A stretch of 57,707 bases of DNA, filler included, from Sphacelaria rigidula (taxonomy: Eukaryota): the NCBI GenBank assembly GCA_964200075.2. It is 8 parts of 8 records of this genome, joined end to end, with 100 filler letters (N's around TTAATTAATTAA, not from the genome) between each part and the next. Parts side by side here need not be neighbours in the genome. Positions count along the whole stretch, not along the records: positions 50,583 to 57,707 come from CAXNAA020016366.1; 7 more parts are not named here. One strand, 5' to 3'. Shown here piece after piece: positions 36,453 through 57,707 of this stretch (position 1 is the first letter of the stretch; every line of letters begins with the position of its first letter). The notes beneath the pieces were generated by a model. That model did no database searches. It had not been told where the DNA came from and saw nothing but the letters and a program-made list of their open reading frames with translations. Made by a program: the position numbers and the translations under genes.

Positions 36453-37575
36453 GCAATGTTTTGGATCTCAAACACGTGCGGATGGTAAACACCAACCACT
36501 CTCCACGGACCACTCCACGTCGCCATCAATTTAGGCGTCACTCCCGGGCAAGGCACGCGTGCATACAAAATATAATCGCCTAGCTCAAAATTTGGCAATT
36601 CCGGCCCCGACGAAGACCCCTCACGTCTACGCGCACGTTAAAGCGGCAACACGCTCTTGCCCTTAAACTTGGAAACTTTTCTGCAACTCCAAAACTTCTT
36701 GCAATGCACGCTTCAGTTGCGCATCGTCCAAAACATCAAACTTTAATTCCCCCACCGATGAGGACGCCAACACCGAGAAAGACGTCCAAGGGGCACGACC
36801 AAACATCACGTGGTACGGCGTACTATCGTAACGACGACGACACGCTGTATTTAGCGCCCATTGTACAGCGGGCAACACGTCCGCCCACGCGGTCACCTCT
36901 CGACGCTGCTCGAGAAGAATAGAGCGGAGAGCACGAACTACTTTCCTGACCATGCGTTCGCACGTGCCGTTAGACCACAGATAATACGCTACCGCAAACT
37001 GGTAATCAACGTGTAATGCCTCTCGCAAGCGGGCCAAGATCGCCTTCTTGAAATGCCTGTCCGTATCACTCACCCACACACGCGGCACCCTCAAAGATTT
37101 GCACCAATTCAGCAAAGATGCAGCGGGCGATTCGGCAGTACACACTGCTACTGGTTCCAGAGCCACAAAGTTACTCAAATCATCCATGATTACCAAAATG
37201 TATGGAAACCCAGCATCCTCCGACAAACCTTGGGAAGCTAGGGGGCCACTCTCGCCCACGCACAAGAAGTCAAAATGAACGACTTCATTCGGCGTGGTCC
37301 CATGGACCGTTTCACCGAGCGGGCGGGGAAACATCACCCGCCCTCGAGTCAGCACAGTGAAGACACTGTCGGACAAACTCGCGCACTTGGATTTCCATTC
37401 CCTGCCAAAGACAAAACTCTAGCAAGCGCACGAGCGTCGCAGCCACACCGCGATGCCTGGCATCGCGCATGTGCGCACAAATCATCAAACGTATGTGCAA
37501 TTGTTTGTCGGAGCTGGGAATCCACAACATGTTTCGGCCACGTACATGCACACGAAACAAACCTTTATTGTCCAA
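36453..37575 (-). pseudogene. pol: Gypsy integrase (disrupted)
   Basis: AHMRDARHRG..VRQCLHC; VVHFDF; VWVSDTDRHF; SNGTCERM; KLMATWSGPWRV. Confidence 0.92.
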
Positions 37576-37632
37576 AATCGCAGTACCAACATCCGACTCA
37601 AAGGATTGTACATCCGCATCAATGGCCCCAAG

Positions 37633-39553
37633 TTATTTTCGTTGAGCTTGGCGGACCACAGATTTCGACGGCATCGAATCATCCGCTTCACACGGACCAG
37701 ATACAGTCACAGCTCGCGCGGGCATAGTGGGAATATTGACCCAGCACGACAGCAAGTCACCCCATACGTTACGTTCACCCGAAACATGACAGACTGTGAA
37801 CCAATACTGGCGTAATACACCTTTCCACGCCTCCAATTGCTGTGCCAACGCCTTCGACACGGACGTCACCTATGCGTCCGGGTTGAAAATGTACGCTAGA
37901 TTGCGGTGATCCGTAAAAATGTGCACGCCATTCCACAATAGATGCTCGAGACGACGAAAAGTGCTCACGATAGCAAACCCTTTCTTGTCAATGGTTGCCC
38001 AACGCATCGGTGAAGCCTTGAGATTACCACTAAGGAAAGCCAGCGGTTCATGCGCCACGTCTTCAACCAGCAACCGTTATTGCATTTCTGCATCAGGCAC
38101 CTGCGTTACAAAACTACCCCAATGACACTTGGATGCATACGAAACCATCAGCACCTGGCAACCGGGGCGGGGATGGAACAGCGTCACGGCATGAGCCACC
38201 AGATACCTCGCTTCCGCCCATGCCTGCAGCCTGTCCTCCGCCTAGGATGCGTGCGGAATAACGCGGTTGTTGGCCACCCACTTCGTGCGCCTTGCAGCCC
38301 CCACCATGAGTTCTTTTGGAAAAACGCACAAGGGCGCCACTACTGCGGCCATACGTTGCAACGAGGTACGCAACCAGTTCATTGCGTGCAGGAATTGCAT
38401 TAGTTCCGCTGCTGTTTCAGGACGCCGCATGTCGGAAAAACCTTGCAAGCGGACCGGGTCATGCGAGACGCGGCCGTGTGAATATACTTTCCCACACCAC
38501 ACTAATGTACTAGCTAAAACGGTACACTTGCGGGCAGCTGCAAACAGAGCAACACTCTCTAAGCCAAGATTTAAGCCAAGATTGCATCAAGCGTATCCAA
38601 CAGTTCGTCTTCCGTATCCGCGAAGAAAATACATCATCCACCCAGATCTTGCATTTCAAGCCATCCAAAAGGTCTAACATGACACCTTGAAAACAGGAAG
38701 TAGCATTTAACGCGCCTTGCGGTACTCGTTGCGGGGTAAACATGCCAAACGGAGTCGTGATGGTGAACATCTCTTGCGCCTCTTCGGCCAACGGCATCTG
38801 CCAGTACCCCTGTAGGAGGTCCAACTTACCGAAGCATCGCGCGTTCAACAGGTCTATCATATCGGATTCCTGATTGGGCATGACACCCGGCGACTTCTCC
38901 ACCTGATCATCGACGGCTCCGTAATCGCTGACAAGGCGGAAAGAGTCCTCCTTCGGCACCGACATCGCTGGACTGGACCACACCGCCTGTAAATTCCTGA
39001 ACACCAACCCAAATGCCACAAGAGCTACCATGCAAGAAGCTGACCAACTGGACTTTACCGGATCATACCTCCTCAGTTTTTCTTTCACCGCGACCGCCCC
39101 TGGCTTCAGTGCAACCCCTATGGGTTCCACGCGCGCAGGGGGATCACCAATCAGCATACGACGAAACGTGTTCACGTGGCGATACAATATGCCACGCAAG
39201 CCCTCCGCGTTTGAAACGTTGAGGCCATTTGCCACAGGATCCGTCACGCTTTCCTCCAGAGCAGCCATTCGCGCGGACTCCTCTTCTGCCGGCTCCATAA
39301 CCATATCGGGGTCACGCTCCACTAAGCGTTCCACCGCCTCATCACGCTCCTCAGACACCTGCCCCCCCGCCTCCTGGAGAGCATTGACCGACACGCTCAC
39401 TCTGCGACTGGCCAAAAAAGCAGGCGTCGCGACACTCGAACCGGGCGACGGCATTTGCGCTTTTAGAAACTCTAACAGCCGATCATACGAGTCGACTCCG
39501 AGTTCCCGAAGCGCCGGTAAGCCCAACAGAACGACACCATCCGTCCCCGGCAT
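37633..39553 (-). pseudogene. pol: Gypsy reverse transcriptase and RNase H (disrupted)
   Basis: WSSPAMSVPK..FRLVSDY..FGKLDLLQGYWQMPL..RVPQG..WVDD; WCGKVYS; EPLAFLSG..FTDHRNL. Confidence 0.92.
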
Positions 39554-39587
39554 GATCGCAGACGATATCGGGGGTCATTGCTGACCC

Positions 39588-41097
39588 TCAGGTCATCCTG
39601 AACGCCAACTGTAGGGGAATCGTACGCTCCGTGACATTGGCACGTTGCTCCGATGCGGTGATGGCCTGCCGCGCCCCGAGCGAAAACGGGATGCGGATTT
39701 GCTCACCAGGAAGTAGACGCTCCAGCATCTCCACAATCAGCACCGACACGCTCGTGAAGTGGGCGCCTGAATCGAACACAGCGTTGACCGATATGACTCC
39801 CCGCGACCGTTGATTTGGGAGATGTGACTCTGCAGGAATATATGTTTCTTGATACTCGACCGGCACCTGCTCCGCCGACTGATTTGTCGTGATCCCCACT
39901 TGGCACCACGGCTGCGCATGCGGCGCAGGCATAGACGCCCCCGCTGGGGTAACCGGCAACACCGGCGGGTGCGAAGCCCCGCCCGCAGAACCAAATTGCA
40001 GCGGTACTCCGGCCGACGCAGCAGCGGATCCAAATTTCAGCTGAAATCCGGCCGGCTCAGCAGCAGGCGTCTCACCTTGCTCCGCTGCCGGCGGCGCCGG
40101 CACCGAGCCCGACACTTGAGTGGTCGGTCCCACCTGCACCGCCCGTTGCGGAGCAGCAGCCCCTGCGGCTGAGCCAGACCCAGAACCGGACCCCTGCTGA
40201 CGCCACCGCCGTTGCTGCTGCTGCTGCTGCTGCTGCTGGTAACTCGACTGCACACCTCCGCCGCTGGAGGATCCGCCTCCGCCACCACCCCGATGACCTT
40301 TTCCTTCTTTGTGATTGCGAGGGCGCGCGGCACGTGCCTGCCCAGACTCCCCCTCGGAAGGCGTTGGGCACTTGCGTGCGTAGTGGCCTACCTGGCCACA
40401 CTGAAAGCAAGTGATGTTGGTGGCGGCACTGCCTGTGAAGTTTGACCAGTGGTTACGCGAGCTCGAAGATTGCGGCGACGAAGTGGATGATTTCCCGAAT
40501 ACTTCAATACTCCGCCATGCCTGAGCCGCAGCCACCACGGTACCCATAACTAAGTACGGATCTGACTTCCAATTATTTTGGTGCTTTAATTGCACAAGCA
40601 CGGCCTGTTTGAATTCCGCCGGTGCCAGACCCTCCACCATCGCTTTCGTGATCACCGCAGCGGGCCTGGACGGAATCCCCCATCGGAGGAACGATAAACC
40701 ATCTCGACGTTGGGTTTTTCTGGGGAAATGTCTCCAACTTTCCCATGATTGGCTTCACCCTCTCATGCATGCTCTTCCCCTTGTGGTTCATGGCGACAAC
40801 CTTCGCCACGGCCGCGGACGCCTGGGTTAGCTCTACCTCAGCGCCCGCCGTATGCCCTGCATGCTTCTCGATCGCTGCAGCCAATTGCAGAGGCGTTATT
40901 GTGTTCTTCTCCTGGAATGTTCGCGCAAAAATGCGTTGGAGGGGGGTAGGCACGAGTTGCGCCATGGATACCACTTGATGCCTTACCGCACCCCCCGCAC
41001 TCGCATGCTCCACCCGCTTCTTGTATTTCACATACTTCGTATAAAACGAACGAGAAGCACACTCAGAATACAAATTTCCGTAACTGGGCGACCGCAA
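39588..41097 (-). pseudogene. gag: Gypsy gag with zinc knuckle and aspartic protease (frameshifted)
   Basis: CFQCGQVGHYARKC; NAVFDSGAHFTSVS; split over ORFs 40573-41097 and 39588-40655. Confidence 0.85.
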
Positions 41098-44000
41098 CTC
41101 TTCTCTCAGAAAAACTGGGGTTACGGTCGTCTCCGCTGGCTCTTCGATCAGTACCTCTGTAGTCGACCTTTCCGAGCGGACCTAATCGAAGGCTTCTGAA
41201 CCTTCTCGAACTCCACAATTCACGCCTGCCTTTGCCGCCGCACCACACAGCCGTGAGGTCCTATGAACTCCCGCTGCACGCAGCTCCAGCGAGTCTCCAG
41301 TCTGGATCAATCACGGGCCAGCCGCTTTTGCAGCTACCTCAGCTTAAACTCTCCTCACGCGTCCGTGAAGCAATATGTTCGAAGCTGTCCAGACTCCTCT
41401 CTACTGAAAAACTTTGAGCTGTCACTAAAGATAGCACTACTAGAACGACTAGCACTAATATCGATATTGTGACACCAGCAGGTTTCTAGTACTGCAGTGT
41501 CTAATGTCCTTGAGGGACTCCCCAGTTCCACTGGCCTCAGGTTTCAGTTGGTAGCCTTCACAACACCTTTTATTATCCTGGAGTGCCACCCAGGCACACA
41601 CGCTCCATAAACCACATCAGCGTATCACCCCTTTGTCCATGTCATCATCCATACTATCACCACAGATCCCAAGTCATCATCCATATCTTCATTATATACT
41701 CAACGTGACGGCGTGATTTCGTCACAGAATCTAGGCTGTTATTGTTCGTATACCGTCGATCGGTCTTCATTCACCATGCAGCGGCCGCTGGTACACACGG
41801 AATCACTGGTAGCCAGGCTGCTGAATCGCGATTTTGTTTTTTCGAAGATGGATTGCTCTCATGAATCTCCGTCTATAGAAGATGTCGAGAGTCCATAGAA
41901 AACGCAAAAAATAAAATAAGAGTTTGACAGCGAAGCTTGCTTTGAGGTATTTCAACATTAAACAGGACTATGTGCAAGTGAAAAACGCAGGGGGCTCATC
42001 AGAAGCACTGCGCACATATAAAATCAAAGATCTGGCCGATTTCTCTCAAGATGAGCTGGCACAGAAAGCCAGGGTCCGTTTCAGCGCTCTTGGTTTGGCG
42101 TTGTCGACCTTGGTCGCTTCTGACGCTGACGATATGGGGGTTCGCCTTTTATTGACATGGTAGTCAGTTGAAGCCATTTGTATCGAGTTATGATGCGGTA
42201 GGGGTTGCACATTTTGGGTCCAGATGTTTCTCATTCAGAGTGATGCTACGGTAAGGGTGCACGAATATTTTCTGAGGTTATAACTGTTAGAAGCCCTTTG
42301 TTTCATGCAAAACACGACTTACGAAAACATGCGAGAGTACGCCAGGATTGCCACTCCAATGTGCTGGGGATATCGCGAATGAACTCTCAAGCGGAGATGC
42401 CTTGACCATATTCTTGTGCATCTAGAACCGTTAAGAGCCCCCTGAACTAGATACGATTTCGCGCAAAACGTGCACCCCTTCCGTGGCATTGCTCTTCAGG
42501 GGCTCGCAGAGTCAGGAGGTACATAAGAAAATTGGTGGCGACATTGCCGTTTTCACCTCCATTCGCGACATCCCTAGCACATTGGAATGAACAGTGGATC
42601 CTGAAAAATGGGGTTCATCCAAAAAATGAGGTTGAAGAGCCGTTTCTCTTTTGCAGGGGAGACGCGAAACACTTACGACCGAGCGAAGCCATCTTCCCCC
42701 CCAAATATCCGCAGCAGTTGAGCAGCTGTGGCTAGGTGCATCTAACGAATGCGGTGTACACGCGTGTCGATGACGATAGCACTAGAGAGAGAAGCAACGA
42801 CAGAGAGGAAGCTCGTCGCCCGTGTCTTTTGTGTGTCTTCGCCCGGCGATTACCAATCGCTTGAGAAACTGGCATCATCGATGTTATTATACCAGTATGT
42901 GTCAAATTTTCCATGCGCCAGAACATCAAGGTGCGGAGAGATTCCGTCTCTTCGTGCCTGTCGAACTCACGAATGCGAAGATCTAATTCTCTCTGCCTCT
43001 CTCTTTGGATAGGACGCGCCTCTGGGCGCTGAAAAACATGTCGTTAGAAAATAGGGCAATGTTTCCACCATCGCTACTACCGTTCTCTGTCACACACATG
43101 CCAGCAAGAACGGTGCGTTGCGGCAAAGGTAGCAGATCCAACTTCAACTGCCCGTATTGTTTTACCGCAGGTGACGCAAGCGCGAGATGTAATGGATCCC
43201 ACACGGGGAAGGCACGGCCTCAGCAATCGCGTGCGCGGACCGCTTGTGGGCATCATGNNNNNNNNNNNNNNNNNNNNNNNNNNNNNNNNNNNNNNNNNNN
43301 NTTAATTAATTAANNNNNNNNNNNNNNNNNNNNNNNNNNNNNNNNNNNNNNNNNNNNTTGTCTTATGACTATGGCATGCATGATCATGAGTACACCCCCC
43401 CAACCCCCCCCCCCCGGGGGGGGGGGCTATCGTGGCACCACTCAATAACGCACTATTATATTTTACGTCATACATGTGTAGGCTTTGCCCCCTATGCACC
43501 AAACTCTTGGGGCACTTACGACCCTCTTGCGTCTTCTGAGACTCCCCTCTACACCTCTCCCCTGCGTGACTTTTATCCGGTAAGAGATGGGTTTTCATAT
43601 CAACTTCAGGAAATGCTCATATCATTTTGTACCAGTAGTAGTTGAGGAACACACACGGAAGAGAAGCTTAGACACGCCCTTCGCACGGCGGCAGGATAAT
43701 AGCCTGCTCCACCTGACACTGGAGTACAGTAGAAACCAAACCGGGAACAGGGCTCAGGGTAGGTGTACCTATGACCTTGCATGCCGTAGTCACAAAACCA
43801 TTGATCTCGCATGCCTACAGAAGTCGAGACGGAGCACGCCGGGTTTCCTCCGGACCAGGCTCAGCATAGGGTAGCGTAGGGGAGTGACGGGGAAAGGTGC
43901 ACATACGGCTCAGTAGTGTAGGTGTCACGGATTCCACTTAGTACTTTTTGTCAGTCGATACCCCCATACACTGGGACACTCAGTATTGCTGTCCGTTAGG

Positions 44001-49789: not shown

Positions 49790-50598
49790 TTAAGTTAAGT
49801 ACTGACACATCAGTCACGACAACTTGTTCGTTGACCGTTGACCTTCGAGAATAGTTCAATGGCAATAGTACAGTTTGCTCTTTTGGTGTGTCATCGCGGA
49901 AGTCTCTAGCCCCCATTTCCAAAGCATGGCGTCACATTTCGAAGTCGGCGTTAGGGGAACGCCGGCATGCATTTTCATACAGCATTGGATAATACCGCCG
50001 CTCGTGGGTGGTCTAAATTATAAACGGTACATCTTGAAAGACGGTTAGGACGGGAGATTGCGGGTCGTAATTTCGGTAGATGGATGTGGATGGGTTCAGG
50101 TATTTCCTGAAAAGGTACAGTATCGCCTAAAGAGGTACAGTATCTGACTTACCGTTGTTGGAGGCGTGAGGACGCGAACAGCAAACGGAAATGTGTTTGA
50201 CACGGATCGACTCGGTACAGGAGTAGTCATCATCATCCAACCGGCGATATATCAAGGTGTAGAGCGTGTAGCCGGGAGAGATGGGGTGATTTCCTGAGAC
50301 CAAGGAATTGTCCCGAAGAATGGGGGGGGCGTACTCATGTGTTGCTTGCCTAAGCCCAAGTCGTGTGACTATTGACCACGCATCCCTTTCGAGAAGAATA
50401 TCGAAGAATAGGAGGGGGGGGGGGGGGGGGGTACTCCTTTTTTGCTTGCTTTAGCCGCCCACCCATTTACCATCGAAGAAGGNNNNNNNNNNNNNNNNNN
50501 NNNNNNNNNNNNNNNNNNNNNNNNNNTTAATTAATTAANNNNNNNNNNNNNNNNNNNNNNNNNNNNNNNNNNNNNNNNNNNNTTGTCCCCTTGGGGGG

Positions 50599-50859
50599 AT
50601 GTTGATTTCTTAACCCAGGGCCCGGCCAAAAAACCCCCACCTTTTCCCCCACCCGCCCCCCCCCCCCCCCGCACAAGACGTATGTGCGAATACCAAGCCT
50701 TTCATCCCATTTTTTTTCCGCCGTGAGTTACCGGCGACGGAGCATTTCAGAACAGATTTTCGGAACAAAATTGCCAATAACTCACGGAGAAAAATAAATG
50801 GGATTGAAGGTTTGGTATTCGTGCTTATCCAAGGTTATGCGCGAAAAACAAATCAACAT
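50599..50859. mobile_element. Palindromic MITE-like inverted repeat
   Basis: GCGAATACCAAGCCTTTCATCCCATTT..CCGTGAGTTA vs TAACTCACGG..AAATGGGATTGAAGGTTTGGTATTCGT; outer ATGTTGATTT/AAATCAACAT. Confidence 0.7.
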
Positions 50860-51814
50860 GCTCTAACTGAGCCAACTCCAAAGATTGCCATAAAATTGTC
50901 GCTCAGGATACCGGAGATGGTCGAGGGACCGTGCCAACATGACGGTGCCATGACACAGCGGAAGTGTAGTCTCCGGTGTCGGTGATGTAGGATCTATTCA
51001 ATCGGACATATCCACCACTCGGTTGGCCATAACGCTACGGTTCTCGTCAGCACATCGCGGCAAAGTCCGCAGCCATGAAAGCGCGTCATCGGACGTCTCA
51101 GGTTTTGACATGTATCAAGTTGTGATGTTTGTTTCGTCAATCGATTGCAAATCCGTCGTGAGATGGGCCGTTGGGTGCGTGTCGTTGCTGAGAGCGACAA
51201 GTATAGGCCAGGTGGTGGTCGCTGTGGTTTGTTTTTCGCCGTTGGCGTAAGCACGGATGCAGATGAAAGAGCCTCCGCTCTGTATTATTCGTTCGTTCAA
51301 GCCGCGAGCTACTCCCCGTGTAGATGTGTGAAGCGGGTCAGGACTGGGAGTCTGTGCGTGTCGCTAGATGAATTTGAAAAGGGGACTTCGGAAGGAAACA
51401 TCAGCGATCAGAGGGTTTGCACTACTCTTGACCAGCAGAAAAGGCGGACCGTAGTACTGGTCTCCTGAGCCTCGAGTAGGACGTCTAGGGAGTGGGGAGC
51501 TGTGCGTTCCGCGATGTTCGCTACGATGAACACACATATCATTAGGCAATGGTTTTCCGTGTGGGAGATCCTGTGCTGTCGAGTTTAGATATCCTCGCCG
51601 GAGTGATTACCATGCCGCGAAGCGATCCCCACGTAACTACAAAGCTGTGTGTCGTTCGCGGTGTAGGATATTCGACGATTCCATGTTGCGATGATCCCAA
51701 CGTACTGGTCGTATCATATAAAGGGGGTGACTCGTCCCATTCAAGTTGGTTTTGCTCTTTAGGTCACCTGAGATCCCGTTTTCCCTCTCTTCAACTACAC
51801 AGGTCCTTCCTGAA

Positions 51815-54697
51815 ATGGCACCGACGGATTGTGACTTCCTGCTTACTCTGTATCGATCGGCTGGTTCTAAGGCTACCTTGGGTAACTGGGGAACGCATGC
51901 CGACCTCTCGGATTGGAAAGGAGTAGGAGTCAGCGACGAAGGCCGCGTGGTCGAGCTTTTTCTTGACCACAGTAGAATCCAAGGTATTTTGAACCTTATC
52001 CTGGATCCAGGATTGAGGTGGTCGTGAGAGTGGCCCGCTTGGTAGCCGACCAGCGATGAAGTTGGACATCCGAGCGGTCACTAAAACTCGAGTACCCCCC
52101 GTGTACGCGTTGGTTGTTGATGCTGTCGTTCGTCGGTGGTCCCAGGGTGCTTCCTGTGGTGTTTCAGCGACTTAATTGTATTGTATCGTTCGCTGTATCG
52201 TTTGGCGTTTGGGCCTCCATAACTTCTGTACTTTCTCTGTTGAGTCTCTGCCGATATTAACCTGTGTTTCCGTGCGTTGTTTCCACTCACGGTATGAGAG
52301 CTCACCCTCGACATTATGCCGCCGGGATAGATAAATGGTAATGTATCCCCATGGTCTTGACTTCCTCATCTCTCGGGGAGGAATGCATGTTCTGTTCCGG
52401 AAGATCGTCTCCACCTGAAGTCACGTTGCCGGGGCAGGGTATTTGCAGTTGTCCTTTGTCGATGTTTTTTTCGCCCCTCAGACTTGACTTGTGTGTCGAC
52501 CCCACATGTTTTTTCTCCACTTTGCTTCGGCCAGGATTGCCGCGTGTTTCATCTCTCGTACGTCTATCTTGTGACCATATCGAGATGCTCGAGGAATACA
52601 TTTTCACGCCGTGTTAGTCAAGTCGACACACGGTATCGGTACGTGGTCTGTCCGTGCACCGTTAGTGTACTCGTCAAAGCTACTCGGTACCTGTTTATCC
52701 CATCTACTCACCGGCTCCTTGAACATGCGCCACCCAAACCCCACAAAACATTTGGGAATTCCACGTGCCTCTGCTACGCGGATAACGTCCGCTGTCGCTT
52801 AGTCTGGAGGACTCTGATGTGTCGGTTGTTACTCTATGCAGAGTTCTCGATCACGAATCCGTCCCGCAGGGTCCAGTAGGCTAGGTGAGTGGCTTCATTG
52901 CTATCATGCGTCCACTCTCGATTTTTGTAGCCTTGCCTGGGGAAACGTCGCGAACGCTGTATTTATTTAGCCTTCCTCTGTTTTGCGACACCAAATGAAA
53001 GTCGTGCGAGCTTGTGGTCTATTGAACACGAGTTTCGGCACACTCGATGTTCGATAACGCTACTTCAGCGTTCCCGAAAACCTCGGACTCCTGGAGGCAT
53101 CCATTACCCTCACCGAGCGCACGGACATGATACCACTGTGAAATTACACACATCCGATGTACTTCGATCCGTTTCAAACACTTTGCGGGCGAAATTCCGA
53201 ATTGTGGGTCAGCTGGGCGAGCTGGGGAAGTTTTCCCTCTACAAAACCCAGGAGAGCAACGAGTCCCCTGGACGAATAAAAGATATGGCGATGTGTCCAT
53301 TGGACGAATAAATGTGTGTAATGATGAGTCACTTGGGCATATGAACGTGTATGGTAGCAGGGGCAGTATTGGAGATTCACGCGATAGCGTCAAGTTGTGG
53401 TCGGCTGTTGTCTCGCGGATCTGTGTCTCGTCTCCGGGTAGGCTCCGGGTTGGCGGGACGCATTCCAGTGGGTGTGACTGCAATCCACGCGTGTTTTGGA
53501 CACCATGCAGGCGGAATTCCAGACTCCCTTGGTCAGCTCAGCAACCTGCGGACGCTAGACCTCCCCCACAACCAGCTAAGCGGTGAGTTCCTGGGGACAA
53601 ATGAACGTGTATGGTAGCAGGGCCGGTATTGGAGATTCACGCGATAGTGTCAAGTCGTGGTCGGCTGTTGTCTCGTGGAACTGTGTCTCGTCTCCGCATA
53701 GGCTCCGGGTTGGCGGCACGCATTGTAGTGGAGGTGGAAAACTGATGGGACTGCAATCCACGCGTGTTTTGGACACCATGCAGGCGCCATTCCGGACTCC
53801 CTTGGTCAGCTCAGCAACCTGGGGACGCTAAGCCTCGTCGGAAACCAGCTGAGCGGTGAGTTCCTCAAGACAAATAAACGTACATGATAGCAGGGGTAGT
53901 ATTGGAGGTTCACGCGACAGTGTCAAGTTGTGGTCGGCTGTTGTGTCGTGGAACTGTGTCTCGTCTCCGGGTAGGCTCCGGGTTGGCGGAGCGCATTGTA
54001 GTGGAGGTGAGAAACTGATGGGACTGCAATTCACGCGTGTCTTGGACACCCATGCAGGCGCAATTCCGGACTCCCTTGGTCAGCTCAGCAACCTGATAGC
54101 GCTACGCCTCTCCATGAACCAGCTGAGCGGTGAGTTCCTGGAGACAAATGAACGTGTATGATAGCAACGCCGGTATTGGAGGTTCACGCGACAGTGTCAA
54201 GTTGTGGTCGGCTGTTGTGTCGTGGAACTGTGTCTCGTCTCCGGGAAGGCTCCGGGTTGGCGGCATGCACTGTAGCGGATGTGAGAAACTGATGGGACTG
54301 CAATCCACGCGTGTTTCGGACATCCATGCAGGCGCAATTCCGGACTCCCTTGGTCAGCTCAGCAACCTGAAAGCGCTACGCTTCTCCATGAACCAGCTGA
54401 GCGGTGAGTTCCTTGGGACAAATAAACGTGTATGGTAGCAGGGGTAGTATTGGAGTAGCAGGGGTAGTATGGGAGGTTCACGCGATAGTGTCAAGTTGTG
54501 GTCGGCTGTTGTCTTGGAACCTGGTCTCGTCTCCGGCTAGGCTCCGGGTTGGCGGGGCGCATTTTAGTGGAGGTGAGAAACTGATGGGGGAACTGCAATC
54601 CACGCGTGTTTTGGACACCATGCAGGCGCAATTCCGGACTCCCTTGGTCAGCTCAGCAACCTGGGGACGCTAATCCTCTTGCAAAACCAGCTGAGCG
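51815..54697 (+). CDS. Brown-algal LRR protein (ROCO/LRR-GTPase-type N-terminus), 5' part: N-cap exon 51815-51983 and LRR exons 53511-53582, 53784-53855, 54058-54129, 54332-54403, 54626-54697
   Basis: N-cap MAPTDCDFLLTLYRSAG..NWGTHADLSDWKGVGVSDEGRVVELFLDHSRIQG|gt (phase 1); five 72-nt phase-1 exons GxIPDSLGQLSNLxxLxLxxNQLS with atgcag/gtgagt ends; C-terminal domains not in the contig. Confidence 0.92.
53188..53260 (+). pseudogene. Decayed LRR pseudo-exon
   Basis: GCGAAATTCCGAA..GGTCAGCTGGGCGAGCTGGGGAAGTTTTCCCTC (GEIP..GQLGELGKFSL) with a frameshift, broken splice sites, and a following intron-like GAGTCCCCTGGACGAATAAA. Confidence 0.6.
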
Positions 54698-54766
54698 GTG
54701 AGTTCGTTGGTTCAAATGAATGTGCGTGGTAGCAGGGCCGGTATTGGAGGTTTACGCGCTAGTGTC
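53325..54766 (+). repeat. Tandem array of exon+intron cassettes, periods 273/274/274/294 bp
   Basis: Introns are near-identical copies (GTGAGTTCCT..ATGAACGTGTATGGTAGCAGGG..GGCTCCGGGTTGGCGG..ACTGCAATCCACGCGTGTTTTGGACACCATGCAG). Confidence 0.97.
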
Positions 54767-55116
54767 TGTTTGTAGCTTCGTGACCCCGTGAGAGGATGGG
54801 GTACAGACTCGACTCAGATAGTCGATCAATGCACACGACTGCGATAGTCGATCAATGGACACGGCTGACTGCCGATCAAGATGAGGTAGAAATGTATATA
54901 AAGCTTTGTTGTTGAAGAGGGAAGGAAGGGGAGTGGGCCCTACGGGGGCCAACGTACCAAGATGCGATAAGCACCACTCACGTATGTCCAGTCACTAACA
55001 TCACAATATAGTCATTCCGCGTAGTAGCCGGAACTCAAACACGTATGTCACTAGACTGTTGTACCTTACCCTGACTAGGTGTATCCTACTGAACACCGCA
55101 GGCCATCCTACGAACA
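54767..55116 (-). mobile_element. 350-bp LTR (3' LTR of a minus-strand element) inserted in the intron after LRR exon 5
   Basis: TGTTTGTAG ... CTACGAACA terminal inverted repeats; adjacent C8 at 55117-55124 is a polypurine tract on the minus strand; the intron consensus stops abruptly at 54766. Confidence 0.8.
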
Positions 55117-57707
55117 CCCCCCCCATAGACTGCGCGTGTCAAAAGTATGGTTCATGGACCATACTTGGTGAACATAACTACTCATCGGAAAAAGAACTCT
55201 TCCGCTCACTGCGCATTCAACAGGTGTATCCTCTCAAGAAATGAATTTCATCAGCAACCGTAAAACGAATGCAAATCCCGGAACTGGTCACTTCTTTCAA
55301 CGACTATGGGACCAGCCAACAATGAAAGACATCGGCATATTTCTTTTCACACCAAGACAAAAACAGGGATGGATGAGCTGTGTGTTTTACCACACTGTAG
55401 CTCCTGATGGTCAACCCAAGCGAAACGCAAGTCAACTTCTTCAACTGTACTAGCCCATGCCCCTTACAAAAGCGTGGGTGGTCGTACTTAGCATTCGAGT
55501 AACCTGCACTACGCACGCGAGACCAAGCTCCTAGGTAACATATATGAATCCACACAACACAGTGCAGTTGACAACTTTCGAAACTCGGATCACATGTTGC
55601 AAAGTCCACTTCACAGTCAGTCAGCTACCTACAGTACAAGAATCAAATTTCAAAATTCAAATTCAGCAATACATACTACAGTAGTGCCTACGTCATCAAG
55701 CCAAACTAGATACTCACTACATCTACTTAAGCCCTTATTCCCCCTCGGTGACCGGCGGAGCAAAGCAGCTCAACGCTTCCAGACAAAACACACGATCAGA
55801 ATCACCCCCCCCCAATTCTTGCTTATCAAAGTCTTTTCCCCCCCGCTTCTAGGCCACGGGGAAGGAGTGCTGCATTCATCATCTTTCCCCCATAGCGGGG
55901 AGATTCGCAGCGAGGGACTGCCTTGATCCTGGTTGGTCACCGCCCTCCAAAACCAACCGTCACGTCATGCTCGTCTCAGCCTTACAGACAGCACCTGTGT
56001 CGGACAAAAAAAGATTTGGGAGGCTCAGCGTCTCACATATCGTGCAGACTCGAGGGGAATGGGCAGTGGGACAACAGACAGGAAAACTATTAATATCCAT
56101 GTTACTCAGGCGCGTCAATCACCAACCGATGAAAATACTTTTACCACGTACCGTACTGTGGTGTCGCGTTACGGTAGTCGCGAACGCACACCCACATGTT
56201 ATACCCGGATTCAGCACTATTATTTCAACTCTTCACTTCTCCATCACATACCACATATGGATCAAACGGCAGCTCGGCCGCTACCATCCTGGTTGCATGA
56301 AACATTACACTTTGCCTTTTACATGCCGTGCCAACATGTGTAGACCCGTGTGGAATTCGCCTGGCCAGCCAACCGAGCAACGACCAGCTCCCATATGGGT
56401 GATTCAATGCACTCATCTTTTATCATGCTGTGCACATGAACCGCATCTCGCTCATGAAGTCAGCTCTATCTATTAGCCGTCAAGTATGTGTCATATGCGT
56501 TTTGCTGACCTGTAGCACAGGAATTTCGTTTGTGCCCACAGTCACTCTTACGATATTATCATGATCAGGCCAAGCTACTAGTATTGCGCTATACTCAGTC
56601 CTCGCTCCTACCATAACAACGAAGTTTCGTCAACCGATCCAGTGAAGAAGCCGATGCCTCGCGAATCCTACACCTCTCGGAATAATAACAACTTTTTCAC
56701 TTAGATGTCGAGTGTCGGAACTCACCTCAAATTTTGTGGTCTCAACCATCATTCACCCGCGTACCCCTCTGCGGAACATTTTGCCGACATCACCCTCTAG
56801 TCTAGTCAGACAGCAGTGCCCCACACGCCTGTACTCACCAAGGCGACGAACAAGGTTCCACCTCAACCGATCGAGTAAGGGTGTGGTGCCCCACAGTCCT
56901 GCGCTCACCGGGGTGGCAACAACGTTACACATAAGCGTTGAGTTTCGGCAACCATGTCAAAACATGTTCTCAACACTCTTCACGCACTTCACTCTGTGCA
57001 ATTTTACCGACACCGTTCCACAGTCAAGTCAAGTCGCGGTGCCCCGCTCTCCTCACACTCACGAAAGCGGCAGACGATTTTCTTCATCAAACGAGTCAAA
57101 CAAACGCGCAAAGTAGGTCTGCACTCATCGAGACAGAAATTCGTCAAACATGAACACTGAGTTTCGTTGTCCATATCAAAAATATGATCTCAGCATTGTC
57201 CAGGAATGTACAACATCTCGATTCACCTGGGCAAGAACCTTTCCTTGGGTACATGAATCACTATCTGCATGACGGTCACGAACACTCAAAACATAAAAAC
57301 AAAGAGGTATTTGAGTCATGCATAGGTCTCATACCATCATTTTTCAAAAGGCCTCTACGTCCACTTCCGAACATACTGAAGAATCTATACTACCCGACGA
57401 CCCTACTGCCATCGCTGTATCTTCATTTTCTCCTGTATTACAATCCTGATATGAGTGTCCTTTTTTTTCCGCATCTCATACAATGTCATTCCGGACAGTC
57501 ACGCGCGAAGTGTGTTGTTTGCTTCCGACAAATCCAACACCACCTCTCCTTTATAGAACCATTTTTTTTTACGCCCATCAGGTTTTGAATCCCCCGTATC
57601 TCCCGAGGTCCCTTGTAAATTCGTAAATTCCTTTTTCGACTTCCCTTGCCACTTCACGGGGGTCCTGGCCAGTTTCCTGTGTCATACGGAAATATTTCCC
57701 GTCTTTC
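55117..57707 (-). mobile_element. Highly decayed Ty1/Copia-like internal region
   Basis: Two zinc knuckles CWICRKQTTHFARDC and CMRCGKK-GHSYQDC (~57440-57545, with a stop and a frameshift); RNase H-like GYSNAKY..KKLTCVSLG near the PPT. Confidence 0.55.

Follow-up and report, generated by a model that had tools for sequence, protein, structure and literature searches.

Organization and divergence of a tandem array of single-LRR exons in a probable leucine-rich repeat gene of Sphacelaria rigidula

Organization of the LRR locus

The DNA analysed here is a 57,707-nt stretch (hereafter the window) from Sphacelaria rigidula (assembly GCA_964200075.2), the last part of which (positions 50,583 to 57,707) comes from record CAXNAA020016366.1. 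On the plus strand, this part contains an exon for the N-terminal cap (N-cap) of a leucine-rich repeat (LRR) protein, followed by a long first intron and a tandem array of five short exons, each encoding a single LRR. One intron plus one LRR exon is referred to as a cassette. Of eight sequencing runs, contigs from two DNA-type runs (X1 and X2) and two guessed-RNA runs (X5 and X6) were used. The features of the locus are as follows.

51803-51983, plus strand: N-cap exon, 181 nt, starting in phase 0 and ending in phase 1, with AG at 51801-2 and GT at 51984-5
51815-51817, plus strand: candidate start codon ATG, the fifth codon of the N-cap exon, with A at -3 and G at +4
51984-53510, plus strand: intron 1, 1527 nt, with GT at 51984 and AG at 53509-10, holding a decayed cassette
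~53189-53258, plus strand: relic (inactivated) LRR exon, identified by cassette alignment, with a 2-nt deletion (frameshift), GG in place of the acceptor AG and AC in place of the donor GT
53325-53510, plus strand: copy of the intron-type repeat in the 3' portion of intron 1, sharing 84-89% identity with the internal introns (blastn self-match)
53511-53582, plus strand: LRR exon 1, 72 nt, phase 1/1 (pattern scan, codon reading)
53583-53783, plus strand: cassette intron 1-2, 201 nt, with an in-frame stop 11 codons in if retained
53784-53855, plus strand: LRR exon 2 (pattern scan; its specific start is joined to an exon-1-type end in a guessed-RNA contig)
53856-54057, plus strand: cassette intron 2-3, 202 nt
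54058-54129, plus strand: LRR exon 3 (pattern scan, codon reading)
54130-54331, plus strand: cassette intron 3-4, 202 nt
54332-54403, plus strand: LRR exon 4, the same as exon 3 at 70 of 72 nt
54404-54625, plus strand: cassette intron 4-5, 222 nt, with an internal 20-nt duplication
54626-54697, plus strand: LRR exon 5 (pattern scan, codon reading)
54698-54766, plus strand: partial sixth cassette intron, consisting of the first 69 nt, with homology to the other introns ending after 54766
54767-57707, no strand assigned: very high-copy, apparently non-coding repeat, beginning with TG and extending to the window end, which either adjoins the array or interrupts it

A scan for 72-nt stretches lying between AG and GT and having an open frame of LRR type returned exactly five units, in agreement with the original prediction of five phase 1/1 exons of 72 nt that each encode one 24-residue LRR. 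All five are flanked by the same sequences, namely a ...CATGCAG acceptor and a GTGAGTTC donor (AG and GTGAGT at the borders), and all five have the same codon register of 2 nt, 23 codons and 1 nt. Each LRR exon starts with GC, and each of them ends with G, as does the N-cap exon, so that any exon-exon junction rebuilds GGC (Gly) and keeps the frame. The symmetric phase and the constant junction codon confirm that the cassettes are exchangeable in frame, and unequal crossing-over, gene conversion and exon skipping would all leave the reading frame intact.

Tandem Repeats Finder described the region 53476-54766 as 4.6 copies of a 274-nt period (84% matches, score 1744). Homology to the array extends over 53325-54766 and was found nowhere else in the window by repeat search and blastn self-comparison, and a 21-mer from the exon framework occurs five times in the window versus zero times in 100 shuffles. 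In a six-frame motif scan of the window, no LRR or N-cap exons were found beyond the five LRR exons and the one N-cap exon, and no reverse-strand copies of the LRR exon were found. The Pfam models LRR_8, LRR_4 and LRR_1 match one exon weakly, with scores under the curated cut-off, an outcome to be expected with 23 residues. The introns had been described as near-identical and about 200 nt long; the length holds (201, 202, 202, and 222 nt), whereas their pairwise identity is 87-91.5%. In all five cases, a retained intron would lead to a stop after 10-11 codons.

The number of cassettes (five) is that of the assembly. Short contigs cannot cross the 1.4-kb array, and the summed depth of run X1 in the array bins is 1.7-13 times that of the flank, as might be seen if the tandem repeat had been collapsed or expanded in the assembly and cassette number or order were artefactual. 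Such an artefact is nevertheless very improbable, because every cassette can be distinguished from the others by differences at ~10% of the intron sites and ~40% of the core sites (defined below), and all array bins are covered in both DNA-type runs.

N-cap exon, intron 1, and relatives of the N-cap module

The N-cap exon encodes an LRR N-terminal cap (W-x-GV ... GRVVEL) and a first, irregular LRR strand. Its position upstream of the array and its phase-1 end are as originally described, but its start is at 51803 and not at 51815. The ATG at 51815 is the putative start codon, judging from its sequence context and from the proteins P0129 and P0041, in which a Met is aligned with it; the frame is open upstream of it to the exon start. 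Alignments of the guessed-RNA contigs start at 51801, which suggests that a further exon lies upstream of the N-cap exon. Farther upstream, a high-copy piece adjoining Ns was observed at 50700-50933.

Intron 1 contains the relic exon, followed by a 64-nt insertion and then by the intron-type copy at 53325-53510. The relic exon is much more diverged than the adjoining intron copy, and it may represent an older exon, one that did not belong to the intron + exon unit that was amplified.

When the 60-residue product of the N-cap exon was compared with 1.84 billion representative sequences using phmmer, 705 matches were obtained at E<=1e-3. The N-cap module is present in up to 17 copies per relative protein, and all 29 relatives scanned are LRR proteins. 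Other partner domains in these relatives include Big_2, Hsp70 and FGE-sulfatase, Ank, and peptidase M66. The named relatives are from Ectocarpus species only (2 of the 20 clusters looked up). The N-cap product shares 45-55% identity with P0041 (Ectocarpus) and 54% with P0129, a 70-residue open reading frame (ORF) with the same starting Met. In a protein atlas, the first match of the N-cap exon was 'LRR N-terminal domain-containing protein' (0.94). In a word-based protein search, none of the longer proteins (12 candidates) scored and there was no candidate of similar length, and an exact 21-mer scan of JGI metagenome contigs returned 0 loci.

The 3' end of the locus and domain content

The homology of the array ends abruptly at 54766. 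From 54767 onwards, the summed contig depth is 6,300-94,600, compared with ~100 (X1) and ~45 (X2) in the unique flank; the repeat is very deep in the guessed-RNA runs too, and loose contig ends accumulate at 54767. Within the repeat, no Pfam family (6 ORFs >=100 aa), no LRR motif, and no second copy in the window were found. A 26-nt tandem repeat (2.3 copies, 54810-54868) and repeats spaced by ~220-230 nt (56693-57181) were observed in it. Because the high-copy repeat runs from 54767 to the window end, the 3' part of the gene is outside the view.

The hidden 3' part leaves room for a ROCO (LRR-Roc-COR) GTPase, of which the array would be the N-terminal LRR domain, with the Roc-COR exons lying past the repeat. 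According to the available text of PMC3341825, all but one of the Ectocarpus ROCO genes bear at their N-terminus a type I LRR exon, the 72-nt single-LRR exon compared with the present exons below. We regard this reading as unlikely. No match to Roc, COR or kinase domains was found in 107 window ORFs (9 + 98, nearly all >=100 aa; short exons could escape), Roc or COR was detected at E<=1e-5 in none of the 29 N-cap relatives scanned, and the non-ROCO users of the type I exon in Ectocarpus (46 loci and 5 kinases) outnumber the ROCO loci in the same source.

Splicing and a second version of the locus

Each of the two guessed-RNA runs contains one contig in which 51983 is followed directly by the first base of an LRR exon, the segment skipped being bounded by GT..AG (depth 20.4 and 23.6; shorter side of the joint, 31 nt). 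This joint is absent from both DNA-type runs, in which contigs read straight through the N-cap donor into the intron. Guessed-RNA contigs that match the window exactly align only over 51801-51981 or 51856-51981 and then continue with letters unlike the intron. In addition, one X5 contig links an exon-1-type end to an exon-2-specific start, and the intron 1 segment 52104-53273 has zero depth in the guessed-RNA runs while it is covered in the DNA-type runs. Spliced transcripts of this gene type exist, and the copy in the window appears to be spliced at both borders of its N-cap exon. GT..AG joints are present in guessed-RNA contigs, the clearest of which come from a second copy that is ~90% identical. 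Exon skipping and copy number could be read neither from the depth gaps over exons 3 and 4 in the guessed-RNA runs nor from the higher depth that the DNA-type runs show over the array.

In the DNA-type runs, two versions of the flank and N-cap exon (50700-52100) were observed, one identical to the window and the other ~92% identical. In X1, the depth of the window-identical version is 26-32 and that of the ~92% version is 50-72 (2-2.5x). The latter, which also prevails among the spliced contigs, may represent a paralogous locus or a divergent haplotype, or may reflect a mixed sample.

These data raise the question of whether the window copy is a truncated, dying fragment that lost its 3' part to the repeat, the functional and more expressed gene being the ~90-92% identical second copy. 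This is possible, if somewhat doubtful. The repeat junction at 54766/54767 falls within a cassette intron, the locus contains a relic cassette, the ~92% version exceeds the exact version in X1 DNA depth, and the ~90% version is 7-8x deeper than the exact version in the guessed-RNA runs. However, the window copy retains five exons with open frames and consensus splice sites, the pN/pS ratio of its framework is ~0.1 (see the next section), and exact-match contigs leave the genome sequence at both exon borders in both guessed-RNA runs. Moreover, a transposable element within an intron need not inactivate a gene.

Substitution pattern in exons and introns

The four internal introns (199 ungapped columns) differ pairwise by 0.103 on average. 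In the exon framework (codons 1-13 and 21-24), the proportion of synonymous differences (pS) is 0.095, close to the intron value, whereas that of non-synonymous differences (pN) is 0.010, giving a pN/pS ratio of ~0.1. In core codons 14-20, on the other hand, pN is 0.50 and pS is 0.20, and 13 of the 21 core columns are variable versus 36 of the 199 intron columns (Fisher p=4e-5). Codons 14, 15, 17, 19, and 20 vary, as does codon 18 in a single case (F in exon 4), while L13, L16, N21, and L23 are invariant in all five exons. The variable residues are thus the x positions of LxxLxLxxN, which have diverged at ~5x the intron rate.

In solved LRR structures, the x positions of LxxLxLxxN face the concave beta-sheet. 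The same concave-face placement is stated for algal LRR proteins in the available parts of PMC3341825 and PMC11378527. The pattern indicates that the scaffold is under purifying selection and the predicted binding face is under diversifying selection. Framework constraint combined with diversification of the binding face argues for an array that has coded for protein in the past and probably continues to do so, and the nature of the diversified positions would fit a recognition surface. Since the introns are alignable, they provide an internal neutral clock for the evolution of single-repeat exon cassettes.

Age and recombination of the array

The cassettes are all of one age by both neutral measures, i.e. 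intron and synonymous divergence. Because the two are equal, the similarity of the introns needs no ongoing homogenization. The proposal of a young, actively recombining array is therefore not supported: an intron divergence of ~10%, equal to the synonymous one, is sufficiently accounted for by ordinary duplication that is not very recent. In a four-gamete test of the five cassettes (186 ungapped intron columns, 11 parsimony-informative sites), 29 of 55 site pairs failed, a modest hint of exchange between cassettes for which recurrent mutation is an alternative. Segment-wise intron identities showed no clear block structure.

Other sources of intron similarity were also considered. An intronic non-coding RNA was rejected, with no Rfam match in 51.8-54.8 kb. 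Likewise, for an intronic RNA structure, RNAalifold predicted 60 pairs but only 1 compensatory change, with a covariation term of +0.8.

The in-frame interchangeability of all cassettes, together with the alternative splicing of LRR exons described for Ectocarpus ROCO genes (PMC11378527, in the text available), would also suit a scheme in which the cassettes undergo programmed or somatic rearrangement, or regulated combinatorial splicing, to give many variants per individual. We consider this extremely improbable. The DNA-type runs contain no joint that matches a homologous deletion or duplication of a cassette (contigs cannot show rare variants), and the sole joint within the array, from 53975 to 54392, links non-homologous positions and has only 25 nt on its shorter side. 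As for the suggestion that recombination is possibly somatic, nothing measured here supports it, and the available text of PMC11378527 states that neither somatic recombinants nor dedicated recombinases are known in brown algae.

Interpretation of the locus

Taken together, the locus is very probably the 5' part of a spliced eukaryotic LRR gene, the LRR domain of which has grown by germline tandem duplication of a 274-bp unit. In the mechanism we propose, this unit, comprising one intron and one 72-nt exon and thus one 24-residue plant-type LRR, would have been duplicated in the germline, and the number and order of repeats could then have been altered by unequal crossing-over, gene conversion or exon skipping. 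After duplication, the scaffold G-x-IP-x-x-LG-x-L-x-x-L ... L-x-L ... N-x-L-S would have been kept constant, while the five x positions of LxxLxLxxN would have been replaced repeatedly. As the replaced positions line the concave face in known LRR structures, the array most likely encodes a short solenoid whose binding face has been diversified. The product is apparently cytosolic. Ligand binding and a role as a receptor are plausible for such a product, as is the mechanism of duplication, and an immune function may be envisaged by analogy. In the accessible text of PMC3341825 and PMC11378527, brown-algal genes with type I exons are proposed, not demonstrated, to be receptors of pathogens or ligands.

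Several observations weigh against the germline-duplicated LRR gene described above. The RNA status of X5 and X6 is a guess; none of the eight runs, four of which are guessed to be RNA, is recorded as RNA. The contigs with the spliced joint mismatch the window at 19 of 181 positions and so derive from a second copy or a divergent allele, and the 31 nt past the N-cap joint match exons 3, 4, and 5 equally and do not fix the order of exons in the mRNA. The exact-match guessed-RNA contigs are shallow (depth 2.9 and 2.5), and the guessed-RNA depth over the bins with exons 3 and 4 is 0-2.6. The gene is incomplete, being cut at 54766 by a repeat of at least 2.9 kb with no downstream exon or terminator seen, and both the relic cassette and the flanking repeats suggest that its surroundings are in decay. 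Finally, the estimates of selection are pN and pS values from only five 72-nt sequences.

There is a small chance that the array is part of a system for receptor diversification, based either on combinatorial splicing of the cassettes or on their exchange, possibly somatic, between paralogous arrays. If true, such a system would generate many intracellular LRR recognition surfaces per individual. The locus would be of greater import if the cassette number varied among individuals or tissues, or if an unexpected effector domain followed the array.

Other features of the window

A degraded Ty3/gypsy-type long terminal repeat (LTR) retrotransposon occupies 36663-41181 on the minus strand and contains zf-CCHC gag, RVT_1, Integrase_H2C2, and rve in broken frames. 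The polyproteins nearest to it, from ENA assembly proteins, share 73-75% identity. Among the 98 ORFs of >=100 aa scanned in positions 1-51000, there was no Pfam match beyond this retrotransposon; either genes are scarce and repeats abundant in this region, or its genes consist of short exons only. A long microsatellite of GTA/GTG-type trinucleotides is present at 20983-21504, with a 173-codon poly-Thr open frame on the minus strand.

Paired runs of 44 Ns, 12 nt apart, recur every ~7,226 nt (at 7128, 14355, 21581, 28807, 36033, 43258, and 50483), and three runs of 10 Ns are located at 24295, 29819, and 34015. Such regular spacing resembles the product of masking or scaffolding and not a biological feature. 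G18 and C-rich homopolymer runs surround the last N block (50414-50670). At 50685-50823, two sub-threshold matches to Rfam plant microRNA models (34 and 33 bits versus gathering scores of 230 and 83) were the only Rfam matches obtained; they are probably spurious hairpin or repeat matches.

Comparison with known LRR systems

The plant-specific LRR class has the consensus LxxLxxLxLxxNxLSGxIPxxLG and a 24-residue period, and the peptides encoded by the exons described here fit this consensus. In plant nucleotide-binding LRR (NLR) and receptor-like proteins, hypervariability is confined to the solvent-exposed xxLxLxx strand of the LRRs. Most plant LRR domains are encoded by large exons, as opposed to one exon per repeat. 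The present array differs from the plant NLR and receptor-like proteins in having one exon per repeat, and no NB-ARC or kinase domain was seen.

In variable lymphocyte receptor (VLR) genes, flanking cassettes that are not spliced are brought together in somatic cells by a process resembling gene conversion. The product predicted here would resemble VLRs as a short LRR solenoid with an N-cap and concave-face diversity, and both systems possess genomic LRR cassettes. Unlike those of VLRs, however, the cassettes of S. rigidula carry normal exons flanked by splice sites, and somatic change was not seen in them. The VLRs of lamprey and hagfish are used as an analogy in PMC3341825, as far as its available text goes.

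Arrays of LRR exons have also been described in Tetrahymena by Xiong et al. 2019 (PMC6564038, available in part), where exons of exactly 90 bp are separated by phase 2 introns and unequal crossing-over is invoked. These arrays are similar to the present one in their tandem intron/exon units, fixed exon length, uniform phase, fast-evolving LRR genes, and association with retroelements. They differ in that they belong to a ciliate and consist of 90-bp, phase 2 units with a 30-residue repeat that does not correspond one-to-one with exons, whereas the exons here are 72 nt long and in phase 1.

The closest counterpart is the type I LRR exon of brown algae, arrays of which are known from Ectocarpus, Saccharina and further species, in ROCO, LRR-only and some LRR-kinase loci. 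In the available text of Zambounis et al. 2012 (PMC3341825), the type I exon of Ectocarpus is 72 nt long and encodes 24 residues with the motif GxxPxxLxxxxxLxxLxLxxNxLx; besides the ROCO genes, it is found in 5 LRR-kinases and in 46 of 164 other LRR loci. The same source describes intronic copies of the LRR exon that have been inactivated, and it reports that sites on the concave face are positively selected. Teng et al. 2024 (PMC11378527, available in part) confirmed the type I exon in four brown algae, with nt 3-71 encoding 23 residues and positively selected sites at 14, 16, 18, and 19, and regarded LRR-only loci as a possible reservoir. The Phaeoexplorer preprint mentions the expansion of ROCO genes and, in its available part, not their exon structure.

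The likeness to the single-LRR-exon arrays of Ectocarpus that had been predicted is well founded, since exon length, register and motif all match. All five exons have the 72-nt length and the 2+69+1 register, with the junction codon always being GGC, and G1, P4, L7, L13, L16, N21, and L23 of the motif are present in all five exons and L18 in four of them. The positions diversified in brown algae (~14-19) are likewise diversified here (core pN 0.50; five exons), an inactivated exon copy is likewise found in an intron (one relic at ~53189-53258), and the in-frame cassettes would likewise permit the in-frame shuffling and exon skipping that have been proposed there. Every defining trait of the type I LRR exon that can be read at the sequence level is therefore present.

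The locus differs from brown-algal ROCO and LRR-kinase loci in that no Roc-COR or kinase domain was seen, the 3' part being beyond the window. It also differs in that its relic exon lies on the coding strand, no reverse-strand copies having been found in the window, and in that its introns are alignable at ~90%, a sign of whole-unit tandem duplication, whereas the available text of the two brown-algal papers stresses rearranged fragments and not a regular 274-bp array; similarly regular arrays might be contained in their locus lists. The design, the proposed immune role and the alternative splicing are already published for brown algae, and what is added here is an example with an internal control rather than a new principle. 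As such an example, the array supports the view that single-LRR-exon arrays are recognition modules under diversifying selection.

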